DNA from: Candidatus Omnitrophota bacterium
GTDB lineage: Bacteria > Omnitrophota > Gorgyraeia > JABMSB01
Reading direction: 5' to 3'
DNA length: 64,000 bases
NCBI GenBank assembly: GCA_013202205.1
Contig: JABMSB010000031.1
Coordinates: forward strand, 310-64,309
Shown: one piece after another, positions 38,333-60,998 of the stretch
Numbering within the stretch: position 1 is the first letter of the stretch
Layout: every line of letters starts with the position of its first letter
The notes under the pieces: model-generated
Database searches by the model: none
Told to the model about the DNA's origin: nothing
Seen by the model: the letters and a program-made list of their open reading frames with translations, nothing else
Position numbers and translations under genes: made by a program

Positions 38333-38379
38333 AAAAAGTAGATATTAAATGCAGGTCAAGTTCTAATTTAAAAGGGATA

Positions 38380-42685: not shown

Positions 42686-43485
42686 ATGACAATCCTAAGA
42701 TATCAGTTGTTATGGCAGCTTACAACGAAGAGAAATATTTAAGAAAAGCTATTGAGAGTATTTTAAACCAAACATTTTCTGATTTTGAGTTTATTATCAT
42801 AAACGACGGCTCAACTGATACTACTTCAAAGATTATTAAAGAGTATATTTCACGGGATTCACGTATTAAGACAAAAGATACAGGAAATTCTGGACTAACA
42901 CGTGCAAAAAATATAGCGCTAGAAATGGCTAAGGGAGATTTGATCGCCATGATGGATGCTGATGATATATCTCTGCCAGACAGGCTGGAAAAGCAAAGGA
43001 GATTCTTAGAGTATAATCAAGATGTAGGATTGCTCGGATCAGGATATTACCGAATAGATGAACAAGGCAATATTTTATATGAGCACAATCCTGTAACCGG
43101 CAGCAAAGAAATACATAAAAATCTTATAAAACGCAATATATTCTGCCATTCAACGATAGTAGTAAGAAGAGGAGTTTTTGATAAAGTAGGCTTTTATAAT
43201 GAGAATTGGCGCACTTCACAAGATTACGAGTTTTACTTTCGGGTGACGAAAGACTTCAAATTAGCTAATCTAAAAATCCCTTTAGTATGCTGGAGGTTGA
43301 GCAAGACAAGCATCTCTTTTACTAGGCAAAAAGACCAGTTAAAAGATGCTCTTCGGGCCCAGCTAAATGCCATGAGAGAGAGGCAATATCCTTTTTACTC
43401 TTATCTGTTTTTAATCCGTCCAGCACTAAAATTAATGTTCTACAACTTAGCCGATAACCAAAAGGATTTTTCGTCTCCACGGTAG
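42682..43485 (+). CDS. Family 2 glycosyltransferase
   Basis: ISVVMAAYNEEKYL. DGSTD. MDADD (DxD). Confidence 0.8.
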   Translation: MNDNPKISVVMAAYNEEKYLRKAIESILNQTFSDFEFIIINDGSTDTTSKIIKEYISRDSRIKTKDTGNSGLTRAKNIALEMAKGDLIAMMDADDISLPDRLEKQRRFLEYNQDVGLLGSGYYRIDEQGNILYEHNPVTGSKEIHKNLIKRNIFCHSTIVVRRGVFDKVGFYNENWRTSQDYEFYFRVTKDFKLANLKIPLVCWRLSKTSISFTRQKDQLKDALRAQLNAMRERQYPFYSYLFLIRPALKLMFYNLADNQKDFSSPR

Positions 43486-43601
43486 GAACAGATGAGGCGA
43501 TGATCAGGAAGTACATTCAGTTACAGGAAAAGGAAGGCACAGGACAAACGAAATTTGAATTTTGATTTGAGCACCCCACCTGTAAAGGCGAGGGAATTTA
43601 T

Positions 43602-46118
43602 ATGACAGCCGCAATATTAAAAATCCCATCTATATCTGAAGCTTGTAATTTTTTTATCTTTGCTTCACTTATTTTTCTTATCATTTTTACACCCTTAACT
43701 TTTGGCGCGGTAGAGACATGGTCAATAATGACAATGGAATTATGCATCCTTTTCATGGTTTTATGCTGGTTTCTAAAGATGCTTCACAAGGGTGAACTTT
43801 CTTTTGTTAAGAATCCCATAGTGTTACTTATCGCTTGTTTCATAGGATTGATTTTATTTTCGCTCATCCCATTGCCTAAATTCTCATTGGCTTTATTATC
43901 CCCCAACACAGTTAAATTATACACCATGAGCCTCGGAGACCTGTACAGTTCCTGTCGCTCAATCAGCGTTTATAAATGGCAGACCGCATTCGAACTACAT
44001 AAGGTATTGGCTTATATAGGTGTCTTCTTTATTATTCTAAATAATATGCGGCACAGAAAGGAAATCGACCGTATAGTGATATGCATTATCGCCGTAGGAA
44101 CTTTTCTCGCTATGGTTGGGGTCGCTGAGAGATATGGCCCCGGGAAGATCGTTTTTTTAAGAACGGGGTTTGGGGAGGATGGGTTTTTTGGCCTGTTTGT
44201 CAACAAAAACCACCTCGCTGGATATCTGGAAATGGTAATACCTTTGGCCATAGCGAAGACATTCATTGATAGTAAGAATATAAGGGGTATCTTGTGGGGT
44301 TTCGCTTCCTGCCTTATGTTATCGCAGCTTTTTTTGACATATTCCAGAGCGGGGATTATAAGTTTTTCGATGTCGTTCCTTATGTGCATTGTTCTCCTCT
44401 CTGTTTTAGGGATGCGTAAAGAAAAAAGATATAAGAGGCATTTTTTTATTATTTTGGTTTGCTTAGCCATAACGTTATTGATGGTGGCGTCCGCGTTAAA
44501 GATAACAACAAACCACATGAACAATACGTTACAAACGGATTTATCAACTAGGTTGCAGCTCTACAAGGATATTTTTCGATTGATTCAAAGATTCCCGATA
44601 TTTGGTGTGGGTTTGGGTAATTTTCAAACGGTGTTTCCGATATACCAATCTTTTGCATATAGAAGTATATTTATTTACGCCCACAACGATTACCTACAAC
44701 TTTTTTCGGAATTGGGTATATTTGGTTTTATTATAGTTTTTTGCGGAGGTTTTTATTTTTTTAAGGGTGTTTTAAGTGCCATCTTGGAAAGTTACAATAG
44801 AAACCCGGAGAGCGACCGCTACGTGGTTAGTCTATTGTTTGGATGTTTAGCCGGTTTTTTGTCTATATCTTTTCATAGTTTGCTGGATTTTAATATGCAA
44901 ATCCCTGCAAACGCCCTACTATTTACGATAATAATAAGCATCACGCTGAAATTGATTATTAAAGAACATGGCGAGGTGGAAGATAAAAATGATTATAAAG
45001 TGACAAAAGCGCTTATTGGAAGAAACCGCATAATAGCATATTTTTCCTTTCCCGCCCTGATGATATATGCCCTTTTTCCCATAAGGGTGTTTTTAACGAA
45101 TACCTTTGCGGAAAAGATAAAGGAAGAAACAAAACCCATTTCTGTTTCTATAGATCTCGAGAAACCCCTACATCTCTCTTCCGGCAATAGCGAACTATAT
45201 TATCACTTAGCGGACTTGTACGAGGCCTCAGGAGATAAACACACAGCGATAAGAAATTATATGAGGTCTATAAAGCTCAACCCGCTAAATAGCAAATATC
45301 ATTTTCGGCTTGGATTGATTTCTGGCGTACAAAGAGATTTTGAAAGGGCGACCTTGCTGAATCCAGCCGGAGAAGACATTTATTATGAAACAGGAGTTTT
45401 TTATCTGAAGGGTCATCAACCCATAAAAGGGGCAGAGCAATTTAAGAAGGCTTTGTCTTTGTCTACACATTATGAAGAAGCAATTTTTGACCAAATATGG
45501 GGCTCTTCCGCCGTTTTTGATCATGATAAATATAAAGTTATGGCTGAGGTGATACCCGATAGCCCTGAAGCAAAAGCTAAGCTTGCGAGATATCTTAAGG
45601 ACAAGCAACTGTGGGATGAATCTGAAAGGGAATATCGCGTTGCGATCGACATGGCGAATGGAAAGGAAAAATTGCGCTATATGGCCGATTTTGCGCATAA
45701 TTTTCTCATGAGGGGACGCCGTAGGTTTGGGGATGCCAAAGAGATATGGCTTAAATATATCGCCCTTAATGATACTAATATCCATGCCTTTTTTAACCTC
45801 GGAAGGTGTTATGAATATGAGGGCGAGCTGGATAAAGCTGCCGAATTCTATGCATACGCAATTCAAATGGCTCCAGAGAGAGTATATTATGACAAACTTG
45901 CGCAAGTCTTGTTTAGAAAAGGGGATTATGAAGGGGCGATTGAGACGTGGCAAGAGTGCATTAAAATTTCTCCAAATTTTTCACCCGCCTATTATGGCAT
46001 AGGAGAGTCATATAATAAGCTCGAACAATTTAATCGCGCTCTGTTTTATTATCAAGAAACATTAAGGCTTAAACCAGATGGTAAAGACATCCTGCAGAAG
46101 ATAGAATCTATTAGATGA
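43602..46118 (+). CDS. O-antigen ligase/polymerase (Wzy_C) domain membrane protein fused to C-terminal TPR repeats
   Basis: About 12 TM helices. Wzy_C motif YAHNDYLQLFSELGIFG. About 330-aa TPR tail. Confidence 0.7.
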   Translation: MTAAILKIPSISEACNFFIFASLIFLIIFTPLTFGAVETWSIMTMELCILFMVLCWFLKMLHKGELSFVKNPIVLLIACFIGLILFSLIPLPKFSLALLSPNTVKLYTMSLGDLYSSCRSISVYKWQTAFELHKVLAYIGVFFIILNNMRHRKEIDRIVICIIAVGTFLAMVGVAERYGPGKIVFLRTGFGEDGFFGLFVNKNHLAGYLEMVIPLAIAKTFIDSKNIRGILWGFASCLMLSQLFLTYSRAGIISFSMSFLMCIVLLSVLGMRKEKRYKRHFFIILVCLAITLLMVASALKITTNHMNNTLQTDLSTRLQLYKDIFRLIQRFPIFGVGLGNFQTVFPIYQSFAYRSIFIYAHNDYLQLFSELGIFGFIIVFCGGFYFFKGVLSAILESYNRNPESDRYVVSLLFGCLAGFLSISFHSLLDFNMQIPANALLFTIIISITLKLIIKEHGEVEDKNDYKVTKALIGRNRIIAYFSFPALMIYALFPIRVFLTNTFAEKIKEETKPISVSIDLEKPLHLSSGNSELYYHLADLYEASGDKHTAIRNYMRSIKLNPLNSKYHFRLGLISGVQRDFERATLLNPAGEDIYYETGVFYLKGHQPIKGAEQFKKALSLSTHYEEAIFDQIWGSSAVFDHDKYKVMAEVIPDSPEAKAKLARYLKDKQLWDESEREYRVAIDMANGKEKLRYMADFAHNFLMRGRRRFGDAKEIWLKYIALNDTNIHAFFNLGRCYEYEGELDKAAEFYAYAIQMAPERVYYDKLAQVLFRKGDYEGAIETWQECIKISPNFSPAYYGIGESYNKLEQFNRALFYYQETLRLKPDGKDILQKIESIR

Positions 46119-46220
46119 CAGGTATAATAATAGCTAATTGTAAGATTTTTGGTATTTCATCGATTTCCCTTTATTTAAAAAAGTGGAGTTTAGATATGGT
46201 AACCAGCGGTTATTTTCGAT

Positions 46221-47444
46221 ATGAGCAATAAATCCGTAATATGTATTATAAGAACTCCGCTTCCTTCTTCGAGCAGGGAAGAGGCATGTCTTTTTTTGAG
46301 AGATTTGGTAGAGATGTTTATCCCGATAACGCATAAAATTTACGTAGTTACAGCAAATGCTCCTAAAGAGGAGGTTCTCAGATTTGTAAGCGGAAGGGAA
46401 GGGAAAATAAAATTTATAAATCCCGATCTGAAGAAGGAATACGAAAGAGGACATATCTTTTTGGTGTCATTTTTTATATGGTGTTTTAAGCACTTAAAGA
46501 TACAGATGCGGATGTCTTTCGATGTGTATAAAATAATACGGGGAATTGATATCGCTTTTTTCTACACAGGGTATCCGTGGTTATTGTCTCCTATGGCGAT
46601 TTTCAAGTTGTTCAGGAAAAAAGTAGTTATATTGGAGACCGGATCATTGTTGCAAGCACAGGATGTGATAAGAGAGCTCAAAGATGAACCATTTTTTAAA
46701 GAAACCTCTATGCAAAACAACATTTTTATGCTAGTCCTCAACTTGCTGGAGAATATATCATTTTTTTTAGCAGATTATATTATACCCGAATCCAGGACCA
46801 TAGGATTGTCAAGGAGATTTTCCAAATACAAGAAAAAGATCCTGCCCCCATTAGCGAGATTTGTGAGATTGGAGAAATTTAATATAATAAAAAGCACTTC
46901 GCAGAAAGATAAAACCATTGGTTATATTGGCCGATTTAGCTGGGAAAAAGGAATTACGAATTTTGTTAACGCGATTCCGCTTATTGCCAAAGAAGCGAGG
47001 GATGCGAAATTTATTCTGGTTGGCGATGGACCACTGTATCCTTATGCCGTAGATCTTGTGAAGGATCACGGTTTTAATAACAAAGTTATATTTAAGGGGT
47101 GGGTATCTCATCAAGAGATACCACATATTTTGAATGAGATGAAATTAATAGTATGCCCCTCTTACGTAGAAGGTTTGTCCACATTGCTATTAGAGGCCAT
47201 GGCCTGCGGAAGCATTGCAATAACAACACCTGTTGGCGGCGTGCTTGATGTGATAAAAGAAGGGGAAACCGGCTATTTGTTAGAAGACAACTCGCCTCCT
47301 TGCATATCTTCCAAGGTTGTATCAGCTTTGAAATCCCGCGAGTTAGACAAAATTGCTAAAAACGCACGTAGTTTGATTGAAGAGAATTATACTTTTTTGG
47401 CGGCAGTTCAGAGGGCACAAGATACTATACAAAAAATCTCATAA
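46221..47444 (+). CDS. Family 4 (GT-B) glycosyltransferase
   Basis: EGLSTLLLEAMACGSIAITTPVGG (E-x7-E motif region). Confidence 0.75.
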   Translation: MSNKSVICIIRTPLPSSSREEACLFLRDLVEMFIPITHKIYVVTANAPKEEVLRFVSGREGKIKFINPDLKKEYERGHIFLVSFFIWCFKHLKIQMRMSFDVYKIIRGIDIAFFYTGYPWLLSPMAIFKLFRKKVVILETGSLLQAQDVIRELKDEPFFKETSMQNNIFMLVLNLLENISFFLADYIIPESRTIGLSRRFSKYKKKILPPLARFVRLEKFNIIKSTSQKDKTIGYIGRFSWEKGITNFVNAIPLIAKEARDAKFILVGDGPLYPYAVDLVKDHGFNNKVIFKGWVSHQEIPHILNEMKLIVCPSYVEGLSTLLLEAMACGSIAITTPVGGVLDVIKEGETGYLLEDNSPPCISSKVVSALKSRELDKIAKNARSLIEENYTFLAAVQRAQDTIQKIS

Positions 47445-47505
47445 GTACCCGATAGAAAAACAGGTATTTTTGTTTCAACAAAATAAAAGCAAAGGATAGT
47501 TCGAT

Positions 47506-48852
47506 ATGGTGTTATTTTCTGATCTAAGAATTTTAGCAATAGTATTTGGTGGGTGTCTGTTGGTATTGTCATTTTTTAGACCCTGGCGGGGGTTATTGAT
47601 TTTTAGTGCCGCACTTTTTTATGAGGCGGCGATTGATATGAAATTATTCGTTATAGAATCGTCACATTTGTATAGATCATGGGACGCCCTTGGGAGCTTT
47701 AAGCTTTTTGGCATGGCCATTGTTATTGGCTGGTTTTTGCAGGCCTTGATTAAGAAGAGAGTTAAGTTGCCGCCGCCCAGCCGAATCTGGTTGCTTATCG
47801 GCATTTTTATGATTATCGTGATTTCAGGGATGTTCTCTATATATAAAGCCAACACTTTAGTATATATTTATTCTTTTTTGGGCGTGGTCGGGATATATTT
47901 TATGATCTGTGATTTATGTTTTGAGCATAAACGAATCGAGCAACTATTGTTGGTTGTGGCGATAGCCGCTTTAATAAACGCACTCATTGCAATAGTTCAA
48001 TATATATTTAAGATAGATGTCCCATGGGATCTGGGCTACAAGTTCGGACAATATAGAGTGGTTGGCGGAATGTCTGATCCAAATTATTTTGGATATCAAA
48101 TTCTCACAGTCTTTCCTATCATCTTCTTTTTCTTTTATAGGACCAGGTCTAAACTGAAAAAAATCGTATTGTTTGCTATAGAGATGATTATGGTTACGTC
48201 AATTGTACTTACATTTTCAAGAGCAGCTTTTATTACATTGTGTGTAGTCTTATTCTTTTTAATGATAATCTTCATAAAACACAAGAAACTTTCTTACGTC
48301 ATAGTTATTATTTTGATGACCTCGCTATTGGGAGTAGTTATTTTTGCTAACCCCAAATATTCCGAAAGATTATCAACCCTGTTTGGGGTCGCGGAGATAG
48401 GCCAGTATGGTGAAACTTCGGAAAGAACTCTTAAAACTAGGGAAGATATTTTCTTCACCGGAACGAAAATGTTTCTCGATCATTTCTGGCTTGGCGTGGG
48501 GCCTAATAACTTTCCCATATACTTAGAATCATATGCACACAGAAGTCTATTAATATCAAGAGGAAGAGGAGCACACAATTCTTTTTTGGGCGTATCTGCC
48601 GAACTTGGCATATTCGGCCTGTGCTTATTTTTACTTTGGATTCTGTTTATATTAAAAGGATTGCGTTTTACACGCAAGAGAGTTCCAAATGATCCTTCTT
48701 CTGCGTTATTATCCGAAGTACTACAGATAAGCATTTTTGCCAATCTGTTTATGTTGACAACGTTAGGTACTTCTTTTAATGTGAAATTATTATGGATATG
48801 GTTTGGTTTAGCCGAAGCCATGAGACAGGTATCTATTTCCGGTAGGACATAA
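47506..48852 (+). CDS. Second O-antigen ligase/polymerase-like (Wzy_C) membrane protein
   Basis: Multi-TM. GAHNSFLGVSAELGIFG motif. Confidence 0.65.
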   Translation: MVLFSDLRILAIVFGGCLLVLSFFRPWRGLLIFSAALFYEAAIDMKLFVIESSHLYRSWDALGSFKLFGMAIVIGWFLQALIKKRVKLPPPSRIWLLIGIFMIIVISGMFSIYKANTLVYIYSFLGVVGIYFMICDLCFEHKRIEQLLLVVAIAALINALIAIVQYIFKIDVPWDLGYKFGQYRVVGGMSDPNYFGYQILTVFPIIFFFFYRTRSKLKKIVLFAIEMIMVTSIVLTFSRAAFITLCVVLFFLMIIFIKHKKLSYVIVIILMTSLLGVVIFANPKYSERLSTLFGVAEIGQYGETSERTLKTREDIFFTGTKMFLDHFWLGVGPNNFPIYLESYAHRSLLISRGRGAHNSFLGVSAELGIFGLCLFLLWILFILKGLRFTRKRVPNDPSSALLSEVLQISIFANLFMLTTLGTSFNVKLLWIWFGLAEAMRQVSISGRT

Positions 48853-49018
48853 GACTATTAAGATGAGTTACGGAAAAAGATTGAGCAAGATGGGGAAAAG
48901 ATTGCAAGGGGTCGATGGAAATCCGGCTTGGTGACACAGAAGACAATAGATGTGCACAAGAAGGTTTTAATGGACGCAACAGAATAAGTAAGGACTACAA
49001 AATTGACAAGGAGAGATC

Positions 49019-50035
49019 ATGGATTGGAAGAGATGTAAGGTTCTTGTAACGGGAGGCCTTTCCTTTATAGGCTCGCATCTGGTTGACGCTCTGGTGAAAC
49101 GAGGCGCAACCGTTCGTGTAGTAGATGATGTAAGCAGTGGCAAGATTGATAACATCCAAGGACACCTCAAAGTGGGACGGGTCGAGTTCATTAAGGGAGA
49201 TCTCAAAGTGCAAGATATAGCACTCAAGGCAGTTGAGGGGATGGATATTGTTTTCCATCTCGCGGCTGACCACGGCGGACGTGGTTACGTCGATCTGCAC
49301 CAGGCGGCATGTTCAACAAACCTTCTTTTAGATGGCCTTCTCTTTCAAGCATGTTATAAGTCGGGGATAAAAAAAGTTATATACGCCTCATCAGGTTGCG
49401 TGTATCCCGACTATCTGCAGAAGGACCCGAAAGAAATATTGTATCTCAAGGAGGAGATGGCTGGACCGCCCTATGAAGCTGATAAGATGTACGGCTGGGC
49501 CAAGCTCATGGGGGAGATGACGCTTAAAGCGTATTATAAAGATTATGGTATGAAATCAGCATCCTGTCGTTATTTTACAGTTTATGGCGAACGAGGTGTA
49601 GAGAATCATGCCGTTATCGCTATGATCGCCCGCGCTTTTATTAAGCAGGATCCTTTCATTGTTTGGGGCAGCGGAGAGCAGATACGCAACTGGACATATA
49701 TTGACGATATCGTATGCGGTACTATCTTAGCAGCTGAGAATATTGACGATGGCACAGCGATTAATTTAGGTACTATGGAAAGAATCCGGGTTATCGATGC
49801 AGTCAATGAGGTATTGCATCGCACCGGACATAAAGCAGAGGTTAAATTGCGCCCGGAGATGCCAACCGGACCATATAATCGGGTGGCCGATAATACTCTG
49901 GCAAAGAAATTACTGAATTGGGAGCCACAGGTCAAATTTATGGATGGCCTATACCGTACCATCGATTGGTATTTCTCAACCAAGGATCGGAAGAAGGTTA
50001 AAAAGATCCTGTCGAAGATGCTTACAGAGCGGTAA
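49019..50035 (+). CDS. NAD-dependent sugar-nucleotide epimerase/dehydratase (extended SDR)
   Basis: VLVTGGLSFIGSHL. YASSGCVY. YxxxK. Confidence 0.75.
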   Translation: MDWKRCKVLVTGGLSFIGSHLVDALVKRGATVRVVDDVSSGKIDNIQGHLKVGRVEFIKGDLKVQDIALKAVEGMDIVFHLAADHGGRGYVDLHQAACSTNLLLDGLLFQACYKSGIKKVIYASSGCVYPDYLQKDPKEILYLKEEMAGPPYEADKMYGWAKLMGEMTLKAYYKDYGMKSASCRYFTVYGERGVENHAVIAMIARAFIKQDPFIVWGSGEQIRNWTYIDDIVCGTILAAENIDDGTAINLGTMERIRVIDAVNEVLHRTGHKAEVKLRPEMPTGPYNRVADNTLAKKLLNWEPQVKFMDGLYRTIDWYFSTKDRKKVKKILSKMLTER

Positions 50036-50226
50036 TGAACAGAGGAGATAACAAGCCGTTGCTGAAAGTATCTGTACTGTTTTTAAAAAAGGAAATGACC
50101 TATTCGTCAATAGGGTCCAGTATATAATATAACATAGCACTATTTATCTTTGTTTCCAGCCAGCAAAGCAAAATTAGCTATGTTGATCTCAAGAATCAGG
50201 CAAAAACCATAAAAAAGGAGTTAAGG

Positions 50227-51354
50227 ATGGGGTTTATAAAAGACGCCTACACCATTTTTAGAATAGGCGCGCGCACCGTGTCGAATACCTATCTTAAATC
50301 TAGCAGGCCAAGCCATGTCTCTATAGCTGTAACCAACCGATGCAACTCGCGATGTATTTACTGCGAGACATATCTGTGTGATTTTTCGAAGGAGCTCACC
50401 ACCCAACAGATGATCTCTATTATTGACGAGATCAGTAGGGACGGAAGTTGTTATATAACGCTTACCGGCGGTGAGCCGTTTATGCGGCAGGATATTTTCG
50501 ACATCATAAAACACTGCTATAAGCGCAACCTCATTGTTAATATACCGACAAATGGCCTTAAAATACATAATTTTAACGCAGGCCAAATAAACACAATCGT
50601 AAAATGCGTAAGAAATATTCAACTTTCCATCGATTCGGCCGATACAAAGGAGAACGACTTTATACGAGGCGTAGATGGATCGTTGGATTTGGCAATCCAG
50701 GGGGTCAAGAGACTCAAAGATGGGGGGTTCGATAAAATCGGAATATTAACTGTTATAAGCAGATATAATTATAAAAAGCTAAAGGGCCTTTTGTATCTTA
50801 CAAGAGACCTTGGCCTTAAAAGGATACGATTTCAACCTGTGGGTATCAATTCTAACTATCCCAGCATAGCACCGCTCAAGGACAAAAGGGAAGTTTTAAT
50901 AAGAGGGAAGCAGATAGACGAGCTCAGGGACACCCTATCAGAGTATATAAGGCTAGAAAATAGATTAGGTTTAACTACTAACTTAAAATTTTTAAAGACA
51001 TGGATCGGTCCGTACTTCAAGTTTATCGAAAGCGAAAAGTTTTTTATGAAAGAGGTTAACAGATGCTTCAGATGCATTTATCCAGCTACGGCATTATTCA
51101 TAGACAGCAATGGGAGGCTGCAACCGTGCCAATTCTTGAACAACGTTGGAAGCGGTCTCAAAGAAGTTGTTTATAATTGGCGACATAATAAAAAATTAAA
51201 TGAGATAAGAAAGAGTCTAAAGAAGGGCAATTTTTTTCAGGAATGTCGAAGGTGCATGTGTACGTTTGAGTTCAGCTCTACCTATCAGCCATTTAGTAAA
51301 TCACAGCCGCCTTTGTTAATCTCAAAGGTCAGGCAAAAGATCAAGGATTCTTAA
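50227..51354 (+). CDS. Radical SAM protein with C-terminal SPASM-type Cys cluster
   Basis: CNSRCIYCE (CxxxCxxC). C-terminal CFRC...C...C...CRRCMC. Confidence 0.7.
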   Translation: MGFIKDAYTIFRIGARTVSNTYLKSSRPSHVSIAVTNRCNSRCIYCETYLCDFSKELTTQQMISIIDEISRDGSCYITLTGGEPFMRQDIFDIIKHCYKRNLIVNIPTNGLKIHNFNAGQINTIVKCVRNIQLSIDSADTKENDFIRGVDGSLDLAIQGVKRLKDGGFDKIGILTVISRYNYKKLKGLLYLTRDLGLKRIRFQPVGINSNYPSIAPLKDKREVLIRGKQIDELRDTLSEYIRLENRLGLTTNLKFLKTWIGPYFKFIESEKFFMKEVNRCFRCIYPATALFIDSNGRLQPCQFLNNVGSGLKEVVYNWRHNKKLNEIRKSLKKGNFFQECRRCMCTFEFSSTYQPFSKSQPPLLISKVRQKIKDS

Positions 51355-52259
51355 TGTCCCGAAGACAAAAACCATACATTATTACTAAATATAACAGGAT
51401 TGTTCCGGCGCCACCTCCCACATTGCAAGAACAGATTATCCTCAGAAGAAAGCTATTCCAGACAGAGAGACATGTTTCTATTCGGAAGATGGCAGAGGGA
51501 ACTTGTGAGCATCTCTCTCGGTATAAGTTTGCTCTTCAATACGCTAAAGGCAGATCTGTATTAGATGCCGGCTGTGGTTCTGGATATGGTGCACATTTTC
51601 TGAAGTTGGAAGGTGCCTCGATGGTGTATGGTATCGACATATCTGCTAGGGCTATAGGTTACGCAAGACAGAATTTTTTGGCCGAGGGCTTAGATTTTGA
51701 ATGTACCGACCTAACCAAGACGCTAAATCTGAAAGATAGATATTTTGATGTGATTATTTCTTTCGAGATCATAGAACACATAAAAGATACAGCTGCTTAC
51801 TTGTCAAATTTAGCGAGATTGCTGAAAGGGGATGGATATTGCATATTTTCAACCCCAAACCGGGATATTAACTCTCCCGGATGGTCTATTCCACACAACT
51901 CCTATCATGTGAAAGAATATAATGCCAGTGAGTTTCAAGATCTTCTAAATGGATATTTTTCAACGTCGGTTTTATTTGGCCAGTACCCCTCGAGGCGAAT
52001 AATAGATTTACGGAAGAGAAAACTCGGATTGCGCAAGATGGCATATGACGGTAAATTGGCTCATATTTATCAATCCATAGCACCTATTTTGCCTAACAGG
52101 TTGAGAAGAAACTTGGTTGATGTGGCAGGGGCTATATATTTGATGTTCAAGAAACCATCAAGTGCAGGACTTGGAGAGAAGCTTGATTTTTCCGATTTTC
52201 TTTTTATTGAGGACGATTTTAAAGATGCCGAACATCTGTTAGCCATTTGTAGAATATAA
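51354..52259 (+). CDS. Class I SAM-dependent methyltransferase
   Basis: LDAGCGSGYGA. ISFEIIEH. Confidence 0.75.
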   Translation: MSRRQKPYIITKYNRIVPAPPPTLQEQIILRRKLFQTERHVSIRKMAEGTCEHLSRYKFALQYAKGRSVLDAGCGSGYGAHFLKLEGASMVYGIDISARAIGYARQNFLAEGLDFECTDLTKTLNLKDRYFDVIISFEIIEHIKDTAAYLSNLARLLKGDGYCIFSTPNRDINSPGWSIPHNSYHVKEYNASEFQDLLNGYFSTSVLFGQYPSRRIIDLRKRKLGLRKMAYDGKLAHIYQSIAPILPNRLRRNLVDVAGAIYLMFKKPSSAGLGEKLDFSDFLFIEDDFKDAEHLLAICRI

Positions 52260-52408
52260 AACAGTAAGAATAAAGCTCGATGTATAAAAAATGAAACGAT
52301 ATTTGTCGGAAGGGATACAAAAGCTTACGTCGGACCCATCATTTGCAAGGAAGATAGAAGTTTAAAAAGGTTGGTGGAATAAGCGGAGCAGTTTATAGAG
52401 GATATTGC

Positions 52409-53455
52409 ATGAGCAGGATTGCCCTTGCCTTATGGATGCAAAAAATTTCTGAACATTTTTTGGGGAAATCGTACGCCATATGCGCTCGATTGCTTCCCCT
52501 CTCGAAAACTATCCACCGTTTCAATTCAAAGCCGACTGAGCTGCATCTGGAATTTACAAATACCTGTAATTGCAGTTGTATTTTTTGTGGCTATCAATAT
52601 CAGAAGCGCAAAAAAATAATTATGTCCGAAGAAATATTAATAAAAGCAATCTCTGATTTTAGTAATATAGGTGGTGGAGATGTTATAGTTACCCCTATAG
52701 TAGGAGAAGCGTTGGTTGATCCTGATTTTATTAAAAAGATCAAGATGATTAGGGCTTATGCGAGTATCAAGAAGATTTTACTTACCACAAACGCTACGCT
52801 TATTCACCACTATGGCATAGATGACATATTAACAACAGGTTTGACAGATATTTACATAAGTACGGCGGGGTTTGATAAAGAAACATACACGAAACTTTAT
52901 CGCGCGCCCTACTATGACTTAATGCGGGACAATACTATTGCCCTTCTTTCCCGAAACGAAGAACTTGGAAAGCCAGTAAATATAACTATACTTATCCGAG
53001 CAGGCAGGTCTCTTTCCGAGGTTTTAGGCACCGTAGACGCACAGCGCGTTCTGAGATTTAAGCCAAAGATAGATTTTGCGTATTATTTTCACGATTTCGG
53101 AGGTAGGATAAAAAAGGAGGATCTCTGGCCAGGGGCAAAGATAAGAGATCCGGGCAAAAAGAAAGAACCTTGTTTTAGCTTGTACAATGGCCCAGTTGTT
53201 CTGCCGGATGGCGAGGTTTGGATGTGTGACTGCGCCGCCGCTATGGATTCTGGTACCAATCTTTTTATAGGCGATATTAAAAAAGAGACCCTTATGAACA
53301 TATGGCAAGGCAAGCTACGCAGAAACCTTATCGCACAATTCTATAAGCAAGGAAAGCTAAATCCAACTTGTTTTAAGTGTACTGCATACCAAAATCTTGA
53401 TCGCTATCGCCATTTTAATCCGTATTTAAAATCTGGCTGGAACTTTTTTAAATGA
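52409..53455 (+). CDS. Second radical SAM/SPASM-type protein
   Basis: TNTCNCSCIFCGY. C-terminal C..C...C cluster (CFSL...CDCAA...CFKC). Confidence 0.65.
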   Translation: MSRIALALWMQKISEHFLGKSYAICARLLPLSKTIHRFNSKPTELHLEFTNTCNCSCIFCGYQYQKRKKIIMSEEILIKAISDFSNIGGGDVIVTPIVGEALVDPDFIKKIKMIRAYASIKKILLTTNATLIHHYGIDDILTTGLTDIYISTAGFDKETYTKLYRAPYYDLMRDNTIALLSRNEELGKPVNITILIRAGRSLSEVLGTVDAQRVLRFKPKIDFAYYFHDFGGRIKKEDLWPGAKIRDPGKKKEPCFSLYNGPVVLPDGEVWMCDCAAAMDSGTNLFIGDIKKETLMNIWQGKLRRNLIAQFYKQGKLNPTCFKCTAYQNLDRYRHFNPYLKSGWNFFK

Positions 53456-55128
53456 AAATTTTATTATTAGGCAACACAACAGGCTATCTCGATGAAGGGA
53501 TGAAAAACATCACCCACAATCTCAGAAGGGTGTTGGCAAAATTTCATGAAGTTAAGGTTATCCATCCTAGGCAAGCCATCAACCTGGAGACGTTAAGAAG
53601 CATACATCTGTTTAATCCCGATATAATCCATTATATGCAAGGCCCGACCATAAGAAGCTTTCTTTTAGTTAAATTGCTTTCCGTGCTTAATCCTGATGCT
53701 GCGACGGTAATCTCTGCTCCTCGTCCTAGCATTTCAAAAATCCATCACTGGTTTTTGTCCGCACTTAAAGTCGACCTGATTCTATTGCAATCTAAAAGAT
53801 ATAAAGATGTCTTTAAAAAATTAGCACTATATGTCGAATTTTTTTATCCAGGGATAGATGCAGAGAAGTTCAGGCCCGTGCCCTCTTCAACAAAAAACTC
53901 TTTACGTCTAAAATATAACTTACCAAAAGATAAATACATCGTCTTACATGTTGGCCAAGTCACATCTGTCAGAAATGTTAATACCCTTGGACAGATCCAG
54001 AAAAAACGACATAAAGATGTGCAGGTACTTATTGTGGCAGCATCAACCATCAAGCCGGATCAGCGTATTGTAAGGCGGCTTAAGAATTGTGGCTGCATTA
54101 TACGGGAAGGATATCACGAGGAACTTCAGGAGATATTCCAACTTGCCGATTGTTATATATTTCCAGGGATTAAAAGAACCCCTGCCATAGAAGTTCCTTT
54201 GACTATTCTGGAGGCCGCAGCATGTAATCTGCCAATCATATGCGGTTATTTCGGTGGCCTCCCAGACATATTCAAAGAGGAAGATGGATTTTTCTTTGTC
54301 AAAAGCGAGGTTGAAATCAGACAAAAGCTGGATCTCCTGATGGAAAATGGAAGTATTGATATAAAGAACAGAGAAAAGATAAACAAGTTTACGTGGTTCA
54401 AGGTATCCGCGCGACTTATGAAGTTATATGAGGAGTGTTTGAAAATACATCGGCTACGCAGACAGAAGAGATTGCCCAGGTTGATATGTTTTATAGGGGT
54501 AGACGGTTCGGGCAAGACGGCCATAGCAAAACAATTAACACATTCTCCTATAGCAGGTGTAAGATATAATTATGTGTGGGGTAGCGCACAACCGATTTTT
54601 ATGAGGCCATTGAGAAAATTAGTGCATACAATTATACTAAACAAAGTAGATATGTTTAAGGATTATCAGGAATATGATAAGACTAAGAAAAGGGTCGCTA
54701 AGAGATTTTTGATATTTTCCAAATTTTACAGTTTCATCTTCGTGATAGATTATTTTTTATGGATGCTATTTTGCGTGAGGATTCCGCTTGCGTTAGGTAA
54801 AAACATAATTTGCGATAGATACATCTTCGATATGGCCATTAATATCCATTTTTTATATGCGAACTTATTTTATAATGTTGACGATGCGATAAAGTTCTTT
54901 CTAAAGATATTTCCCACTCCTGAGATGGTTTATCTAATAGACCTTCCTGAAGAAATAGCATTTTCACGCAAAGATGATATACCTTCTATCGAATATTTAA
55001 GGCAACGCAGGATAGTATACAGGGAGGTCGCAAAAAGGTATGGGGCGAAGATTATCGAAGGGACAAAACCATTACGCGTTCTTGCGGATATCGTACGTAA
55101 CGATATCATAAAAACATATATGCGGTGA
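53452..55128 (+). CDS. GT4 glycosyltransferase fused to a C-terminal P-loop dTMP-kinase-like domain with intervening hydrophobic segment
   Basis: GT4 motif LTILEAAACNLPIICGYFGGLPDIF. P-loop ICFIGVDGSGKT. Tmk-like ICDRYIFD and the lid region. Confidence 0.6.
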   Translation: MKILLLGNTTGYLDEGMKNITHNLRRVLAKFHEVKVIHPRQAINLETLRSIHLFNPDIIHYMQGPTIRSFLLVKLLSVLNPDAATVISAPRPSISKIHHWFLSALKVDLILLQSKRYKDVFKKLALYVEFFYPGIDAEKFRPVPSSTKNSLRLKYNLPKDKYIVLHVGQVTSVRNVNTLGQIQKKRHKDVQVLIVAASTIKPDQRIVRRLKNCGCIIREGYHEELQEIFQLADCYIFPGIKRTPAIEVPLTILEAAACNLPIICGYFGGLPDIFKEEDGFFFVKSEVEIRQKLDLLMENGSIDIKNREKINKFTWFKVSARLMKLYEECLKIHRLRRQKRLPRLICFIGVDGSGKTAIAKQLTHSPIAGVRYNYVWGSAQPIFMRPLRKLVHTIILNKVDMFKDYQEYDKTKKRVAKRFLIFSKFYSFIFVIDYFLWMLFCVRIPLALGKNIICDRYIFDMAINIHFLYANLFYNVDDAIKFFLKIFPTPEMVYLIDLPEEIAFSRKDDIPSIEYLRQRRIVYREVAKRYGAKIIEGTKPLRVLADIVRNDIIKTYMR

Positions 55129-55132
55129 TTTA

Positions 55133-56287
55133 ATGGAAAACCATTCGGCCAAAAGAACCTTTCTTAATAGCTACAACCAGCGCAGGCTGAAGATAGGTCT
55201 TTTGTGCGATAAAATAGTGAGATTCTTTTTTCACCCTCCGACGCCAAAGAAACCTCCCAAAGTTTTCTCTAAGATATTAGTTATTCAATCTCACCTTATC
55301 GGCGATCTTGTTATGACCACGCCCATACTGCAGACCCTTAGAAAAGCTTATCCCGACGCACGCATATATCTTTTGGCAAACAAATTCGCTTCAGATTTAT
55401 TAAAAGGAGCCTATTTTGTCGATAAGATCTATACCATTAGATTTCCCTGGTCCACTTATGATTATAGCTGGGGAAACCTGAGAAGCATTTACTCAGTCGT
55501 CAGGTCTTTGCGGAAAGAAAATATAGATCTTGCGATAGACGCCAAAATAGATGCGAGAAATGCATTTTTGATGTTTCTGATTGGTGCAAAAAGGCGTCTC
55601 GGCTACGATATAACAGGTGGAGGATCTTTTTTGACCGACACGCCTGATTTCCCCGCAAATTCGGAAAATATGACCGAAATTAGACTGTCTCTACTAAAAC
55701 ATCTAGGCATAGAGATTAGCGACAAGGCACCAGTTATACCCCTAAGCAAAGAAGATATGACTGTTGCAGAGAACTTTTTGGAAAGTAGACATTTGAATCG
55801 TAATAACCTTGTGGGGATTCATCCTGGAGCAAGCTATAAGGCAAGGATATGGCTTCCTGAAAATTTGGCTGTTGTTATAAGAGGGCTTAAAAAAGAGGGA
55901 GTAGACGTCATTTTGATAAAAGGCCCCAAAGACGAGAGAATAGTCACACAGATACAGGGGATGCTGAAGGAGCCCATAGAGATTTTTGAGGGCACACTTA
56001 AAGGTGTTACCGCCTTACTTTGTTACTGTCGGTTGCTCATATGTATGGATAGCGCGATTCTGCAATTGTCCGCCGCCACAAAAACGCCGACACTGGCAAT
56101 ATATGGATCCACATCACCGCTGAGGACTAAACCACTTACTTCAAACATAGTGATTAGCTATCATAAAGAGTTTGACTGTCAGCCATGCGACTATAACAAA
56201 CCTTTTTGTACAGATAAAAAATGTATGTCAGCAATAACGCCAGAGGAAGTGCTGCGAAAAGCACGGCAAATGCTTAGAAGCAACTAG
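55133..56287 (+). CDS. Family 9 glycosyltransferase (heptosyltransferase-like)
   Basis: ILVIQSHLIGDLVMTTPILQTLRKAYPDARIYLLA. Confidence 0.75.
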   Translation: MENHSAKRTFLNSYNQRRLKIGLLCDKIVRFFFHPPTPKKPPKVFSKILVIQSHLIGDLVMTTPILQTLRKAYPDARIYLLANKFASDLLKGAYFVDKIYTIRFPWSTYDYSWGNLRSIYSVVRSLRKENIDLAIDAKIDARNAFLMFLIGAKRRLGYDITGGGSFLTDTPDFPANSENMTEIRLSLLKHLGIEISDKAPVIPLSKEDMTVAENFLESRHLNRNNLVGIHPGASYKARIWLPENLAVVIRGLKKEGVDVILIKGPKDERIVTQIQGMLKEPIEIFEGTLKGVTALLCYCRLLICMDSAILQLSAATKTPTLAIYGSTSPLRTKPLTSNIVISYHKEFDCQPCDYNKPFCTDKKCMSAITPEEVLRKARQMLRSN

Positions 56288-56323
56288 GTAAGAATTATTA
56301 ATACAAACTCAGCTTGAGGGAAG

Positions 56324-57832
56324 ATGACAAAAAATAGAAAGAGACTTATCGTCCTCGGAATAGATAGTTTAGATTCAGTTTTGCTGAATAGATTCGAACC
56401 CTTCTTACCTAATTTTAAGAGACTAAAAGAACAAATGCCGACTCTAAAATATTCCTCTGTTTTACCTCCTGATTCTATAACTGCATGGGCCAGTATATAT
56501 ACGGGTTGCGATCCCGCAAAACACGGGAGAGTTTATTTTATTGCCGTAGATAAGGTCAATGAGGCCATATATAACGAAATAGATAATAATGACTTTCATG
56601 GAAAGACGTTTTGGGATATAGCAAGCGATGCCAAAAAGAAAGTGTGTGTCCTTTTTCCCCATATAGGGTATCCACCGTGGAAGGTCAATGGTCTAATGGT
56701 GTCGAAAGCCATAACCAAAGAAGAAATAAGAAGTTACCCTGAATCAGCAATCAGGGGTTACGATCTATCAGATGTTAAAAGGTTAAGAGGCGTTCCGACA
56801 GTTTTTCAACGTAAACGTTATATAAAAGATGCACAGCGCCTACTTTTAAATGAAGAGAGTTTTGGATTGCGTATATATGAAGATTATAAGCCAGATCTAT
56901 TTTTCCTTTATTCCAGCGTCTTAGATTTTATAGAACATAACTTTTGGAGTCTTTGCGACAAAGATGACCCTGCTTACCCAGGATCAAATTCATATGAGGA
57001 AGTGATTAAAAAGTTCTACAAGCTCTATGATAATATGCTGGGCAAGTTTTTAAAGTTGCTTGACTCCGAGACAACACTTATGGTATTAAGTGACCATGGC
57101 CACGGTATGAGGCCGGTTAAGTTATTCAATATAAACGAATTCTTAAGACGTGAGGGGGCCTTAGCATCAAAGATAAAAAGCACCCACTTCTACGACCCAT
57201 ATTTCGCAATAGAGCAGCTAAAACACTGCCTTACATTTTTAATAGACAAATTTAGTAAATACGGACTGGGTAATTTGGCAATTTCTGTACTCCACTATTT
57301 TACGGCCGGCAGGAAGCTTTACAAGGCACCATCATATATAGATTGGGATAAGACATTAGCGCATCTGGCAGACCTATCAGGAGTAAAGGCATATTCTTAT
57401 GGAGGGATCGTTATCCGGATGGATAACCTGAAGCAGCAAAACTACGAACAGATACGAACTGAGATAATAGAGAAACTACGAAACATAAAAATTCCTTCCT
57501 CGGGGAAGGCATTATTTAAACTGGTTTGCAGAAGAGAGGATCTTTACAAAGGCAAACACATTTCTAAGTTTCCCGATATACTTTTTGAGCTCTCAGATGA
57601 GTATGGGGCGGGGTGGAGTGTCAATTCCTCGTTATTTGGCAGGACCTATTCACATAAGCTGCATGCCGGAACTCACAAAAGAGATACAGGGGTATTTTTG
57701 ATATCCAACCCTGATAAAATAAGCAAAGATCTTAATGAAATAAGCTGTATGGATATAGCACCTACCGTGTTAGGTTTGCTAGATGTAAAAGGTGATTATT
57801 CTTTTGATGGAAGATGTATAGTGGAGGATTGA
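56324..57832 (+). CDS. Alkaline-phosphatase-superfamily protein of the type I phosphodiesterase / nucleotide pyrophosphatase (NPP) type
   Basis: LIVLGIDSLD. S..P..S..AWASIYTG..P..HG. VLSDHGHG. Confidence 0.65.
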   Translation: MTKNRKRLIVLGIDSLDSVLLNRFEPFLPNFKRLKEQMPTLKYSSVLPPDSITAWASIYTGCDPAKHGRVYFIAVDKVNEAIYNEIDNNDFHGKTFWDIASDAKKKVCVLFPHIGYPPWKVNGLMVSKAITKEEIRSYPESAIRGYDLSDVKRLRGVPTVFQRKRYIKDAQRLLLNEESFGLRIYEDYKPDLFFLYSSVLDFIEHNFWSLCDKDDPAYPGSNSYEEVIKKFYKLYDNMLGKFLKLLDSETTLMVLSDHGHGMRPVKLFNINEFLRREGALASKIKSTHFYDPYFAIEQLKHCLTFLIDKFSKYGLGNLAISVLHYFTAGRKLYKAPSYIDWDKTLAHLADLSGVKAYSYGGIVIRMDNLKQQNYEQIRTEIIEKLRNIKIPSSGKALFKLVCRREDLYKGKHISKFPDILFELSDEYGAGWSVNSSLFGRTYSHKLHAGTHKRDTGVFLISNPDKISKDLNEISCMDIAPTVLGLLDVKGDYSFDGRCIVED

Positions 57833-57866
57833 GCGCGCAGGCAGGAAGGATAAGGTTTATTTAAGT

Positions 57867-58700
57867 ATGATAAACGTTCTAACTTTTGATACAGAAGAGT
57901 GGTTTCAATCGCATGAGCTGGGGATAGAACCACGCAATTGGCAGCATTTGGAATGCAGGGTTTGCGAGAGCGTGAAGAGGATCCTCGCTATCTTAAACGA
58001 GCGCGGTATCAAAGCGACATTTTTTGTTGTTGGATGGATTGCGCAGCGGTATCCAGAATTGGTGAGGGAGATAGTTAATGCGGGTCACGAGGTAGGCAGC
58101 CATGGCTATGCTCATGAGATAGTATATGAACAGACGCCTGAGGATTTTGAAGAAGATCTTAAAAAATCGCTGAATATATTAAAAGACATAACAGGCAAAG
58201 ATGTAATAGGCTATCGAGCGCCATATTATTCTATCACAAAAGATTCTTTGTGGGCCTTGGATATACTACAGAGGTATGGCCTGAAATACGATTCGAGTAT
58301 CTATCCTATTAGCTTAAGGATGTTTACCAAAGGAGGTATTAAGGGATATATATCGAAGCCATGTATAATAAAAGAAGGTTTATTCGAATTTCCTATGCCA
58401 GTTACAGAATTATGCAATTTCAAATTACCGGTGGCCACAGGCATCTATTTTCGTCTATTTCCTTATCGATTTACCAGGTGGGCAATAGAAAAGGCTAATA
58501 AAAGAGGCCTATTCGTAACCGTTAATCTTCACCCCTGGGAATTTGATCCTCTTCAGCCCAGGGTTAAGATGTCATTACCCTATAGCATAAAGCGTTATAC
58601 CAACTTGCATAAGACGGAACAAAGATTTCGCAGGTTGCTTGACGATTTCGACTTTACCAGTTGTAAACACAAGCTCAAGGAGATTTTTGAAGAAAGATGA
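57867..58700 (+). CDS. Polysaccharide deacetylase family protein (EPS-locus subtype)
   Basis: LTFDTEEWF. GHEVGSHGYAHE. 277 aa. Confidence 0.7.
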   Translation: MINVLTFDTEEWFQSHELGIEPRNWQHLECRVCESVKRILAILNERGIKATFFVVGWIAQRYPELVREIVNAGHEVGSHGYAHEIVYEQTPEDFEEDLKKSLNILKDITGKDVIGYRAPYYSITKDSLWALDILQRYGLKYDSSIYPISLRMFTKGGIKGYISKPCIIKEGLFEFPMPVTELCNFKLPVATGIYFRLFPYRFTRWAIEKANKRGLFVTVNLHPWEFDPLQPRVKMSLPYSIKRYTNLHKTEQRFRRLLDDFDFTSCKHKLKEIFEER

Positions 58701-59922
58701 AGATAGCCTTTTTTAATCGCTCATTCCATCCTGATGTTGAAGCAGTGGGTTTGCTTTTAACGGAACTATGCGAAGAACTCACTAAGCGATACAACATCTC
58801 TACTACCGTTGTTGCGGGGTTACCCTATTATTCTGAAAATTCTCAATATCATAAGAAATTCCCTTTTGCGCGCGAACATTATCAAGGTACAAAGATTTTA
58901 AGGGTTTGGTCTCTTAGTTTGGACAAAAGCAAAACTTTTTGCAGATTCGCAAATTATGTCAGTTTTACCATTCTTTCTGTATTGGCAGGTTTTCGATTGG
59001 GGAAGCAAGATATCATAATTGCTCACACCAACCCTCCGACGGTTCCGATAGTTGCGTTTCTATTTGCTAAATTATATAGAGCAAAATTTATCTATTGGTG
59101 CAAAGAGATATTTCCTGAAACAGCAAATTTGCTCAAAGATTATCACAATAGACATATGGATAATATCTTGAATCGAGTTAATCGTTTCCTTTTTAAGAGA
59201 GCGGATAAGATAGTGGTGATTGGAGAGATGATGAAAAAACGTCTAGTGGAAGAGAAGGGTGCACCCGAAGAAAAGATAACAATAATACGCGACTGGGCGC
59301 GGTGTGACCGCATATATCCTGTGAAGGAAAGCAACCCTTTTAAGCTTAAATATGGCCTCGACGGAAAATTAGTAATAATGCATTCGGGAAATATAGGATT
59401 GGCGCAAGAGGTGGAAACGGTGGTAGAGGTGGCCAAGGCTTTCAATGATAGAAAAGATATAGTTTTTTTAATTGTAGGCGACGGGGCCAGGAAAAGGAAT
59501 TACAGAAAAAAGCCGAATCTTATGGTTTGACCAACGTGACCTTTTTGCCATTTCAACCAACTGAGACATTAAAATTTTCTCTTTCGGCAGCGGACATACA
59601 TATCGTTTCTTTAAAAAAAGGTTTTTCGGGTTATTTGGTACCCAGCAAGATATACAATATTCTGGCAACTGGCTGCGCCCTTATAGCCGCGGGGGATGCA
59701 GAATGTGAAATGGTAGATATGGTGCAAAAGTACGAATGTGGTTTTACGTGCCGCCCTGGAGATATTGAAGCTATAGTTTCTTTTATAGAAAAGTGCTATA
59801 ATAATCGCTCATTTCTTAAGCGGATTAGTGAAAATGCACGCAACACAGCGCTTCACTACGATTTTGAAAAGCCTCTTGATACAGCACATAAATTATTTTT
59901 GGAACTAACGCAACAAGGATAA
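58697..59922 (+). pseudogene. GT4 glycosyltransferase disrupted by a single-nucleotide frameshift near 59491-59497 (ORFs 58697-59530 and 59527-59922)
   Basis: Frame 2 reads ...LIVGDGARKRNYRKKPNLMV*. Frame 1 continues ...ELQKKAESYGLTNVTFLPFQ. Adding one base in the GAAAAGG tract restores a full-length GT4. Confidence 0.6.
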
Positions 59923-59933
59923 GGGCATCTAAT

Positions 59934-60962: not shown

Positions 60963-60998
60963 TCGAGACATATCTTTCTAACGTAAAAGAGGGTAATT

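Follow-up and report, generated by a model that had tools for sequence, protein, structure and literature searches.

The three adjacent genes studied here lie in a 64,000-nucleotide stretch of contig JABMSB010000031.1 from Candidatus Omnitrophota, which we refer to as the window. They encode a radical S-adenosylmethionine (SAM) protein that we call rSAM1, a methyltransferase and a second radical SAM protein, rSAM2 (Table 1). The original prediction described three open reading frames (ORFs) with these domain types at these positions, and both the ORF calls and the Pfam matches agree with it. Against the Pfam Radical_SAM model (PF04055; cut-off 29.5 bits), rSAM1 scores 62.3 bits and rSAM2 scores 45.5 bits, which places both proteins in the radical SAM superfamily. 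The middle protein scores 57-76 bits against Pfam class I methyltransferase models. The trio is enclosed in a surface-polysaccharide locus, and our data suggest that it probably modifies the glycan made there.

Table 1. Features of the trio and its surroundings, with positions counted from the first nucleotide of the window.
Feature	Position	Strand	Description
rSAM1	50227..51354	+	375 aa; radical SAM enzyme with Twitch-like C-terminal domain
Methyltransferase	51354..52259	+	301 aa; class I SAM-dependent (Methyltransf_23/11/31; Pfam, NCBIfam)
Spacer	52260..52408	+	149 bp; carries the 24-codon ORF and the GAGG ribosome-binding site of rSAM2
24-codon ORF MKRYLSEGIQKLTSDPSFARKIEV	52291..52365	+	within the spacer; judged a chance ORF
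rSAM2	52409..53455	+	348 aa; BtrN-like Twitch radical SAM enzyme of a large, unnamed, FkbM-linked family
GT1/GT4 glycosyltransferase fused to a P-loop thymidylate-kinase-like domain	53452..55128	+	start overlaps rSAM2 stop
NAD-dependent sugar epimerase/dehydratase	49019..50035	+	immediately upstream of rSAM1
Third radical SAM gene	41288..42685	+	best matches to B12-binding radical SAM families; preceded by two class I methyltransferases
Surface-polysaccharide locus	34616..62003	+	~27 kb, single strand
Exporter and tyrosine kinase	34616..38017		within the polysaccharide locus
Polysaccharide deacetylase	57867..58700		XrtA-type
Split GT4, first ORF	58697..59530		Glyco_transf_4
Split GT4, second ORF	59527..59922		Glycos_transf_1; 4-nt overlap with the first ORF
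Outer-membrane biogenesis block	20296..32670		upstream of the polysaccharide locus

The stop codon of rSAM1 and the ATG of the methyltransferase form a TAATG overlap. In the NCBI gene model, the methyltransferase starts at M46 (51489 rather than 51354) and has 256 aa, and its full-length homologs begin to align at about residue 46. Translational coupling had been proposed across 50227-51354-52259. The coupling of rSAM1 to the methyltransferase holds only if the long methyltransferase start is real. The NCBI model of rSAM2 starts at M10 (52436 rather than 52409) and has 339 aa, and the GAGG lies six bases 5' of the ATG that we use. At the other end of rSAM2, an ATGA overlap joins its stop codon to the start of the GT1/kinase-like fusion gene at 53452, a coupling that had been missed before.

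Both radical SAM proteins had been called SPASM-type. Formally this is correct, as the Pfam SPASM model scores above its cut-off of 21.5 bits in rSAM1 (21.8 bits, borderline) and in rSAM2 (39.4 bits). However, the cysteine pattern does not fit. The SPASM motif, CX9-15GX4C-gap-CX2CX5CX3C-gap-C, comes with two bound auxiliary clusters (PMC6231123). A Twitch domain is a shortened form of SPASM that binds one cluster, with one cysteine on each side of a beta-hairpin with a conserved glycine and further cysteines past the following helix (PMC6231123; PMC9012708). We searched rSAM1 and rSAM2 for the seven-cysteine SPASM motif and found it in neither, with the CX5CX3C part missing. Each carries only CX12GX4C ... 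CX2C, a Twitch-like ligand set for one cluster. The Pfam SPASM model still scores in both, as it extends over the portion that Twitch domains have in common with SPASM. Judged by their cysteines, rSAM1 and rSAM2 are Twitch-type and not SPASM proteins.

These cysteines are well conserved. In rSAM1, C39, C43 and C46 belong to the SAM cluster and C283, C301, C340 and C343 (with C345) are the auxiliary cysteines; they are kept in its relatives. In rSAM2, the SAM cluster cysteines are C53, C57 and C60, the auxiliary cysteines are C255, C273, C321 and C324, and there is one more cysteine, C275. When rSAM2 is compared with 123 family representatives, the three SAM cluster cysteines and the four auxiliary cysteines are conserved at 98-99%. 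The extra cysteine, C275, is specific to this family and occurs in 92% of the 124 members. The CX3CX2C motif is invariant among relatives of both proteins.

rSAM2 belongs to a large family that carries no name. No NCBIfam model comes near its cut-off with rSAM2 (best, 59 bits against 380). When 1.84 billion proteins were searched with a profile of the family, at least 792 representatives of clusters at 50% identity matched at E <= 1e-30. Against PDB sequences, the best match of the profile is BtrN, in the Twitch domain, with all four auxiliary-cluster cysteines aligned. C275 sits in a four-residue insertion relative to BtrN. In the AlphaFold2 model of rSAM2 (pLDDT 84.7), two helices (residues 3-40) lie ahead of the first core strand, which is preceded by 43 residues. 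Foldseek ranks BtrN first for this model, followed by DesII and BlsE, three radical SAM enzymes that modify sugars, and then by SkfB, EpeE, SuiB and anSME. The Foldseek E-values are close together, so the ranking is supportive but not decisive.

Genes near rSAM2 orthologs point to glycans. We compared 57 non-redundant rSAM2 loci (at least 40% identity), with neighbours identified by Pfam. A gene for an FkbM-family methyltransferase is adjacent to rSAM2 in 30 of the 57 loci and lies within 5 kb in 31. Carbamoyltransferase genes are adjacent in 9 loci and within 5 kb in 17. For glycosyltransferase (GT) families, the counts are 8 adjacent and 24 within 5 kb for GT4, and 4 adjacent and 20 within 5 kb for GT2. 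Any of these four markers occurs within 5 kb in 39/57 loci. FkbM enzymes of characterised pathways are almost all O-methyltransferases (PMC9259500). Family members also occur as fusion proteins. One joins FkbM to rSAM2 (P0286), another joins a rhamnosyltransferase-like domain to rSAM2 (P0270), and a protein of 1977 aa (P0260) combines radical SAM, TPR, Methyltransf_24, rSAM2 and GT2 domains. These fusions strengthen the link between the rSAM2 family and methyltransferases and glycosyltransferases.

Relatives of rSAM2 occur at 75 loci in GTDB species genomes. The carriers are mostly Acidobacteriota and nearly all are metagenome-assembled genomes (MAGs), and the others belong to Planctomycetota, Myxococcota, Melainabacteria, Alphaproteobacteria and Omnitrophota. 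At four loci in MAGs of Terriglobales or other Acidobacteriota (L017, L018, L023 and L025), the rSAM2 ortholog stands alone among housekeeping genes, and in the first three of them accD is downstream. cobO lies upstream of the ortholog in three loci, and pdxT lies downstream in L025 and five others. In L017, L018, L023 and L025, the orthologs lie at about positions 8000-10000, with no glycan genes within 5 kb.

All + strand ORFs between 34.6 and 62 kb of the window are glycan-assembly genes. The first part of the locus encodes, in order, Wza, Wzc, Wzx, two class I methyltransferases, a B12-type radical SAM protein, a GT2, a Wzy_C+TPR protein, a GT1 and a Wzy_C protein. The trio lies in the middle part, between the NAD-dependent epimerase and the GT1-kinase fusion. 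The last part encodes a GT9, a type I phosphodiesterase, the XrtA-type deacetylase, the split GT4, a WecA-like transferase and a second epimerase. For the B12-type radical SAM protein, the NCBIfam models HpnJ, ApyD and BchE match at 127-130 bits, all far under their cut-offs, and the GT2 gene overlaps the end of its gene. In the fusion protein downstream of rSAM2, the C-terminal P-loop domain has the Walker A motif GVDGSGKT, and this protein may phosphorylate a sugar or glycan.

The locus in part resembles XrtA/PEP-CTERM exopolysaccharide loci (TIGR03006, TIGR03027 and others). The deacetylase scores 296.6 bits against TIGR03006, the XrtA-system polysaccharide deacetylase model, where the cut-off is 276.2 bits. 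The exporter, the tyrosine kinase, a glycosyltransferase and the Wzy-like ligase have their best or near-best matches to XrtA-system families. The exporter reaches 164.6 bits against the XrtA exporter model (cut-off 180), the tyrosine kinase match is likewise near threshold, and the other XrtA markers are also under their cut-offs. The locus differs from these systems in that we found no exosortase, and no PEP-CTERM protein, in the 64-kb window. Radical SAM models named for XrtA/PEP-CTERM are absent from the NCBIfam matches listed for rSAM1 and rSAM2. We also searched the cluster for a peptidase, a peptidase-domain exporter and an intergenic ORF of at least 60 aa, and found none. No PqqD-type (RRE) domain was found by Pfam in the scanned ORFs of the cluster, the few others having already been assigned by NCBIfam.

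The trio is a local juxtaposition and not a conserved cassette, as it had been described. The rSAM-methyltransferase-rSAM order recurs only in contigs identical to the window, and the three genes are distributed independently of each other; the idea of a conserved three-gene cassette was therefore rejected. We looked for an rSAM1 neighbour beside the rSAM2 orthologs and never found one. rSAM1 and rSAM2 share 26% identity over 104 residues and are therefore not close paralogs. Among the nearest homologs of the methyltransferase, those on contigs long enough to read (P0292, P0294 and P0299) lie in glycan clusters that have no radical SAM gene.

rSAM1 is nearly an orphan, and its glycan context is the only evidence on its function. 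One relative at 50% identity (L011) was found on a 3.5-kb contig, where it is followed by a class I methyltransferase gene. That methyltransferase resembles the one in the window only in the SAM-binding core (27% over 98 residues). Of two more distant relatives, one (P0023, 30%) is part of a polysaccharide cluster that also encodes a priming transferase, a flippase, two GT4 enzymes and a deacetylase, and the other (P0024, 29%) adjoins an SDR gene, a B12-type radical SAM gene and a GT2 gene. In a metagenome scan, all relatives of rSAM1 had at most 36% identity over part of the protein and at most 28% over its full length, and their contexts were mixed. About 25 of 80 of these loci have identifiable glycan markers, which is suggestive but not decisive. 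The arrangements found among distant relatives include GT2-rSAM-epimerase (L122 and L158) and Wzc-Wzy-rSAM(-rSAM). Two metagenome contigs are crowded with radical SAM genes. L100 (Ga0172371_10000334, positions 1-16000) has nine rSAM1-like ORFs and one ORF like the B12-type radical SAM protein of the window, and L154 (Ga0172371_10001695, positions 1-16700) is similarly crowded. In its AlphaFold2 model (pLDDT 83), rSAM1 has a single helix of about 22 residues (residues 2-22), with 28 residues ahead of the first core strand. The rSAM1 profile matches the BtrN Twitch domain with E = 1.6e-13. Its matches are mixed, so the fold does not separate peptide from sugar substrates.

The spacer in front of rSAM2 holds a 24-codon ORF that had been put forward as a possible precursor peptide. 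The ORF is present where it was described, and on inspection its sequence has neither a Shine-Dalgarno sequence nor a cysteine, as also noted before. Its proposed role did not hold up. Of 20,000 spacer shuffles, 12.6% contain a complete ATG ORF on the same strand that is 24 codons or longer, and other spacers of the same cluster contain ORFs of 18, 21, 23 and 57 codons. We compared the 24-aa peptide by tblastn with 88 related loci, including all 75 rSAM2-family genome loci, and found no homolog beyond identical contigs. The best non-identical match (E = 0.86) falls about 2.3 kb upstream of an rSAM2 homolog, outside its spacer. Two further public contigs bear the trio, and their spacers are identical to that of the window, so they hold no evolutionary information on the small ORF. 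The small ORF, whose conservation in orthologous loci had been suggested as a check, is absent from every related locus compared. Spacers 5' of rSAM2 orthologs measure 11-143 bp. When small ORFs around the 57 rSAM2 orthologs were compared all against all, none was conserved, and the recurring ones were out-of-frame shadows of real genes. Given the missing ribosome-binding site, the chance expectation, the lack of a homolog and the lack of a conserved small ORF near orthologs, we rejected a precursor role. The 24-codon ORF is a chance ORF. A regulatory element in the spacer was likewise rejected, as no Rfam family matches this sequence and no site in it resembles a promoter or terminator.

The glycan locus, the BtrN match and the linkage of rSAM2 relatives to FkbM methyltransferases and glycosyltransferases favor radical sugar chemistry, which the original prediction had listed as its alternative. 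We therefore consider it probable that the trio encodes tailoring enzymes of a Wzx/Wzy-type surface-polysaccharide locus, in the style of XrtA/PEP-CTERM systems, in an anaerobic Candidatus Omnitrophota. These enzymes may combine oxidation or epimerisation with methylation. That they tailor a glycan rather than modify a peptide is likely. Oxidation or epimerisation as the specific chemistry is a tentative proposal, drawn from BtrN, NeoN and HygY.

By analogy with these three enzymes, each radical SAM protein would bind a SAM-cleaving [4Fe-4S] cluster and one auxiliary Twitch cluster. Reductive cleavage of SAM would give a 5'-deoxyadenosyl radical, which would abstract a hydrogen atom from a sugar carbon. 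That sugar may be linked to a nucleotide, may belong to a lipid-linked repeat unit or may have just been transferred. Action at or after transfer is favored by the fusions to glycosyltransferases and by the ATGA overlap. From the sugar radical, two routes are conceivable. The radical could be oxidised via the auxiliary cluster to yield a keto sugar, as in BtrN. It could also be re-protonated from the opposite face by a cysteine to yield an epimer, as in NeoN and HygY, and C275 of rSAM2 is a candidate hydrogen donor. The class I methyltransferase would O-methylate a sugar of the same glycan. On a broader scale, the rSAM2 family and FkbM could form a widespread, unrecognised two-enzyme module that edits surface glycans by post-transfer epimerisation or oxidation followed by O-methylation or carbamoylation. 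We regard this module as a real possibility, short of a probable one.

Antibiotic pathways contain Twitch radical SAM enzymes known to modify sugars, namely BtrN, NeoN, HygY and SpeY. BtrN (PDB 4M7T), the 2-deoxy-scyllo-inosamine dehydrogenase of the butirosin pathway, has a radical SAM core and a Twitch domain, whose single auxiliary [4Fe-4S] cluster is fully ligated. Its auxiliary cysteines align with C255, C273, C321 and C324 of rSAM2, of which it is also the top Foldseek match. The carbon on which BtrN acts is a carbohydrate-like carbinol carbon (PMC9012708). The two proteins share only about 15% identity, and rSAM2 is about 100 residues longer. Unlike BtrN, rSAM2 has the two N-terminal helices and the four-residue insertion with C275, and most of its relatives have a basic C-terminal tail. 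BtrN acts on a free aminocyclitol in antibiotic biosynthesis, whereas the rSAM2 family is found in cell-surface glycan loci and its conserved partner is an FkbM methyltransferase.

NeoN and HygY are Twitch radical SAM epimerases of aminoglycoside pathways. They epimerise a sugar carbon at a late stage, in a glycosylated molecule, with a cysteine as hydrogen donor. In NeoN, this donor is Cys249 (PMC10991966). For HygY, a latent dehydrogenase activity revealed by a single-cysteine mutation is cited in the same work (PMC10991966). The likeness to rSAM2 lies in the extra conserved cysteine C275, whose equivalence to the donor cysteine of NeoN and HygY is a guess. Their pathways make secondary metabolites, whereas the rSAM2 locus is one for a surface polysaccharide. 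BlsE (cytosylglucuronate decarboxylase) and DesII act on nucleoside- or nucleotide-linked sugars and are sequence and structure matches of rSAM1 and rSAM2, but the similarity is mostly confined to the radical SAM core. We saw nothing in this locus that indicates a uronic-acid or 4-amino-sugar substrate of the BlsE or DesII type. The peptide-modifying enzymes SkfB, SuiB, CteB and PqqE are the best structural or profile matches of rSAM1, and SkfB is likewise a Twitch enzyme. However, SkfB, SuiB and CteB have an N-terminal RRE domain and adjacent precursor genes (PMC6231123), whereas rSAM1 has one short helix and no precursor.

Several observations count against glycan tailoring. Eighteen of the 57 rSAM2 loci have none of the four marker genes within 5 kb, and at least 7 of these 18 are of the Terriglobales type, in which the gene lies among the housekeeping genes accD, pdxT and cobO. 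Such lone orthologs mean that the family's role can be independent of a polysaccharide cluster in the vicinity. About a dozen loci have the FkbM methyltransferase as their only linked gene, so the rSAM2-FkbM pair is the conserved unit and its substrate need not be a polysaccharide. No FkbM gene was found in the window, where rSAM2 has a class I methyltransferase and a GT1 as neighbours. The FkbM enzyme EreM N-methylates a peptide, and its cluster contains a radical SAM epimerase and a B12 radical SAM enzyme (PMC9259500). The top Foldseek and PDB-profile matches of rSAM1 are peptide maturases (SkfB, SuiB, CteB and PqqE), with BlsE among them. SkfB is itself a Twitch enzyme, and function in this subfamily is not predictable from similarity (PMC6231123); a Twitch domain is thus by itself no sign of a sugar substrate. 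All NCBIfam matches of rSAM1 and rSAM2 stay under the model cut-offs and neither family has a characterised member, so substrate and reaction are assigned by analogy only. Some of these points would fit an rSAM2-FkbM pair that acts on a membrane lipid, on lipid A or core, or on a cofactor, its presence in glycan clusters reflecting co-localisation of envelope genes. Where the pair occurs alone, glycosyltransferases are absent within 5 kb, the family occurs mainly in Acidobacteriota, the cluster in the window adjoins lipid A genes, and the lipid-modifying radical SAM enzyme GDGT-MAS is among the structural matches. Yet most loci have GT4, GT2 or carbamoyltransferase genes within 5 kb, family members are fused to a rhamnosyltransferase-like domain and to GT2, rSAM2 in the window is translationally coupled to a glycosyltransferase, and the best match in both sequence and structure is a carbohydrate enzyme, BtrN. 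Together these make a non-glycan substrate improbable. Chemistry on free nucleotide sugars is nearer to the glycan-tailoring reading, whose general claim it shares. In this case, the radical SAM proteins would catalyse deoxygenation or deamination, as DesII does, or decarboxylation of a uronic acid, as BlsE does. DesII and BlsE rank second and third structurally for rSAM2, BlsE ranks seventh for rSAM1 and is a sequence match for both radical SAM families, and rSAM1 here, like its relatives in L122 and L158, is flanked by NAD-dependent epimerase/dehydratase genes. We consider such precursor-level chemistry rather unlikely, as the glycosyltransferase fusions and the tight coupling fit action at or after transfer, and as rSAM1 and rSAM2 retain four auxiliary cysteines, unlike DesII, which is not known to have an auxiliary cluster.

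The peptide and protein readings fare worse. The original prediction favored a maturase of peptides or proteins, with the precursor in the spacer or with formylglycine as a product. As a cassette for a RiPP (a peptide made by ribosomes and modified after translation), the small ORF would encode the precursor, the two radical SAM proteins would cross-link or epimerise it, and the methyltransferase would methylate it. RiPP pathways rely heavily on SPASM and Twitch radical SAM enzymes (PMC6231123), SkfB, SuiB and CteB are the best structural matches of rSAM1, and the small ORF is directly 5' of rSAM2. In the pythonamide pathway, a single peptide is even acted on by a radical SAM epimerase, a B12 radical SAM enzyme and a methyltransferase (PMC9259500). 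Against this stand the chance-level ORF without ribosome-binding site or homolog in the 88 loci, the lack of any conserved small ORF around the 57 orthologs, the lack of an RRE domain in rSAM1 and rSAM2, whose core strands start after only 28 and 43 residues, and a cluster with no peptidase, no peptidase-domain exporter and no intergenic ORF of at least 60 aa, in which the neighbours are all glycan genes. rSAM2 groups with carbohydrate-modifying Twitch enzymes, which, together with the unconserved ORF, is the outcome that had been named as speaking against a peptide. For rSAM1, the missing RRE domain, the missing precursor gene and the glycan operon also disfavor a peptide substrate. The RiPP reading is the least plausible of those considered, and maturation of a protein is scarcely more plausible. 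The latter would supply formylglycine to the alkaline-phosphatase-family enzyme at 56324 or would modify PEP-CTERM-sorted proteins. It draws on anSME, a SPASM radical SAM enzyme among the structural matches, on a distant rSAM2 relative that JGI automatically named AslB, and on the XrtA/PEP-CTERM type of the locus. However, that enzyme, a phosphodiesterase-family protein, lacks the C/S-x-P/A-x-R motif, the cluster has no sulfatase, and a search for a sulfatase-type C/S-x-P-x-R target among the 22 annotated cluster proteins (34.6-62 kb) found none, so that formylglycine maturation was rejected. anSME has two auxiliary clusters held by the seven-cysteine motif (PMC6231123), which rSAM1 and rSAM2 lack. 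The window yielded no exosortase or PEP-CTERM protein, and the rSAM2-family fusions are to glycosyltransferases and a sugar-type methyltransferase rather than to protein-binding modules.

In full-text searches we found no report of a sugar-modifying Twitch radical SAM enzyme from surface-polysaccharide assembly, or of an rSAM2-FkbM module of this kind, and we know of none. Literature searches that paired radical SAM enzymes with O-antigen, exopolysaccharide or FkbM returned nothing relevant apart from the pythonamide FkbM case. If such a module exists, its radical SAM members would be the first to be assigned a part in the assembly of surface polysaccharides, and the window, with three radical SAM genes in one locus, would hold an unusually radical-rich example. 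The trio itself is ordinary, and the value of the analysis lies in its by-product, a large unnamed family of BtrN-like Twitch proteins tied to FkbM methyltransferases and glycosyltransferases. The linkage of this family points to oxygen-independent glycan modifications that composition analyses and annotation pipelines would have missed. rSAM2 and FkbM offer enzymologists a defined pair for expression and assay. Genome miners should take from this case that a SPASM Pfam match and a nearby small ORF are insufficient to call a RiPP cluster.

Other features of the window concern the composition of the locus and its surroundings. The G+C content drops from about 0.48 to 0.31-0.39 at about 38 kb (38000-48000) and then stays near 0.40 up to 62 kb. 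This drop is consistent with horizontal exchange of a variable portion of the locus. The GT4 gene near the end of the locus is split in two overlapping ORFs. The gene may be genuinely split, or a frameshift or sequencing error may have divided it. Upstream of the locus, the outer-membrane biogenesis block encodes BamA, LpxD, an LpxC-FabZ fusion, LpxA, LpxI, NadE and LpxB. The same block contains a UDP-GlcNAc 3-dehydrogenase and aminotransferase pair, which hints at lipid A of the GlcN3N type.

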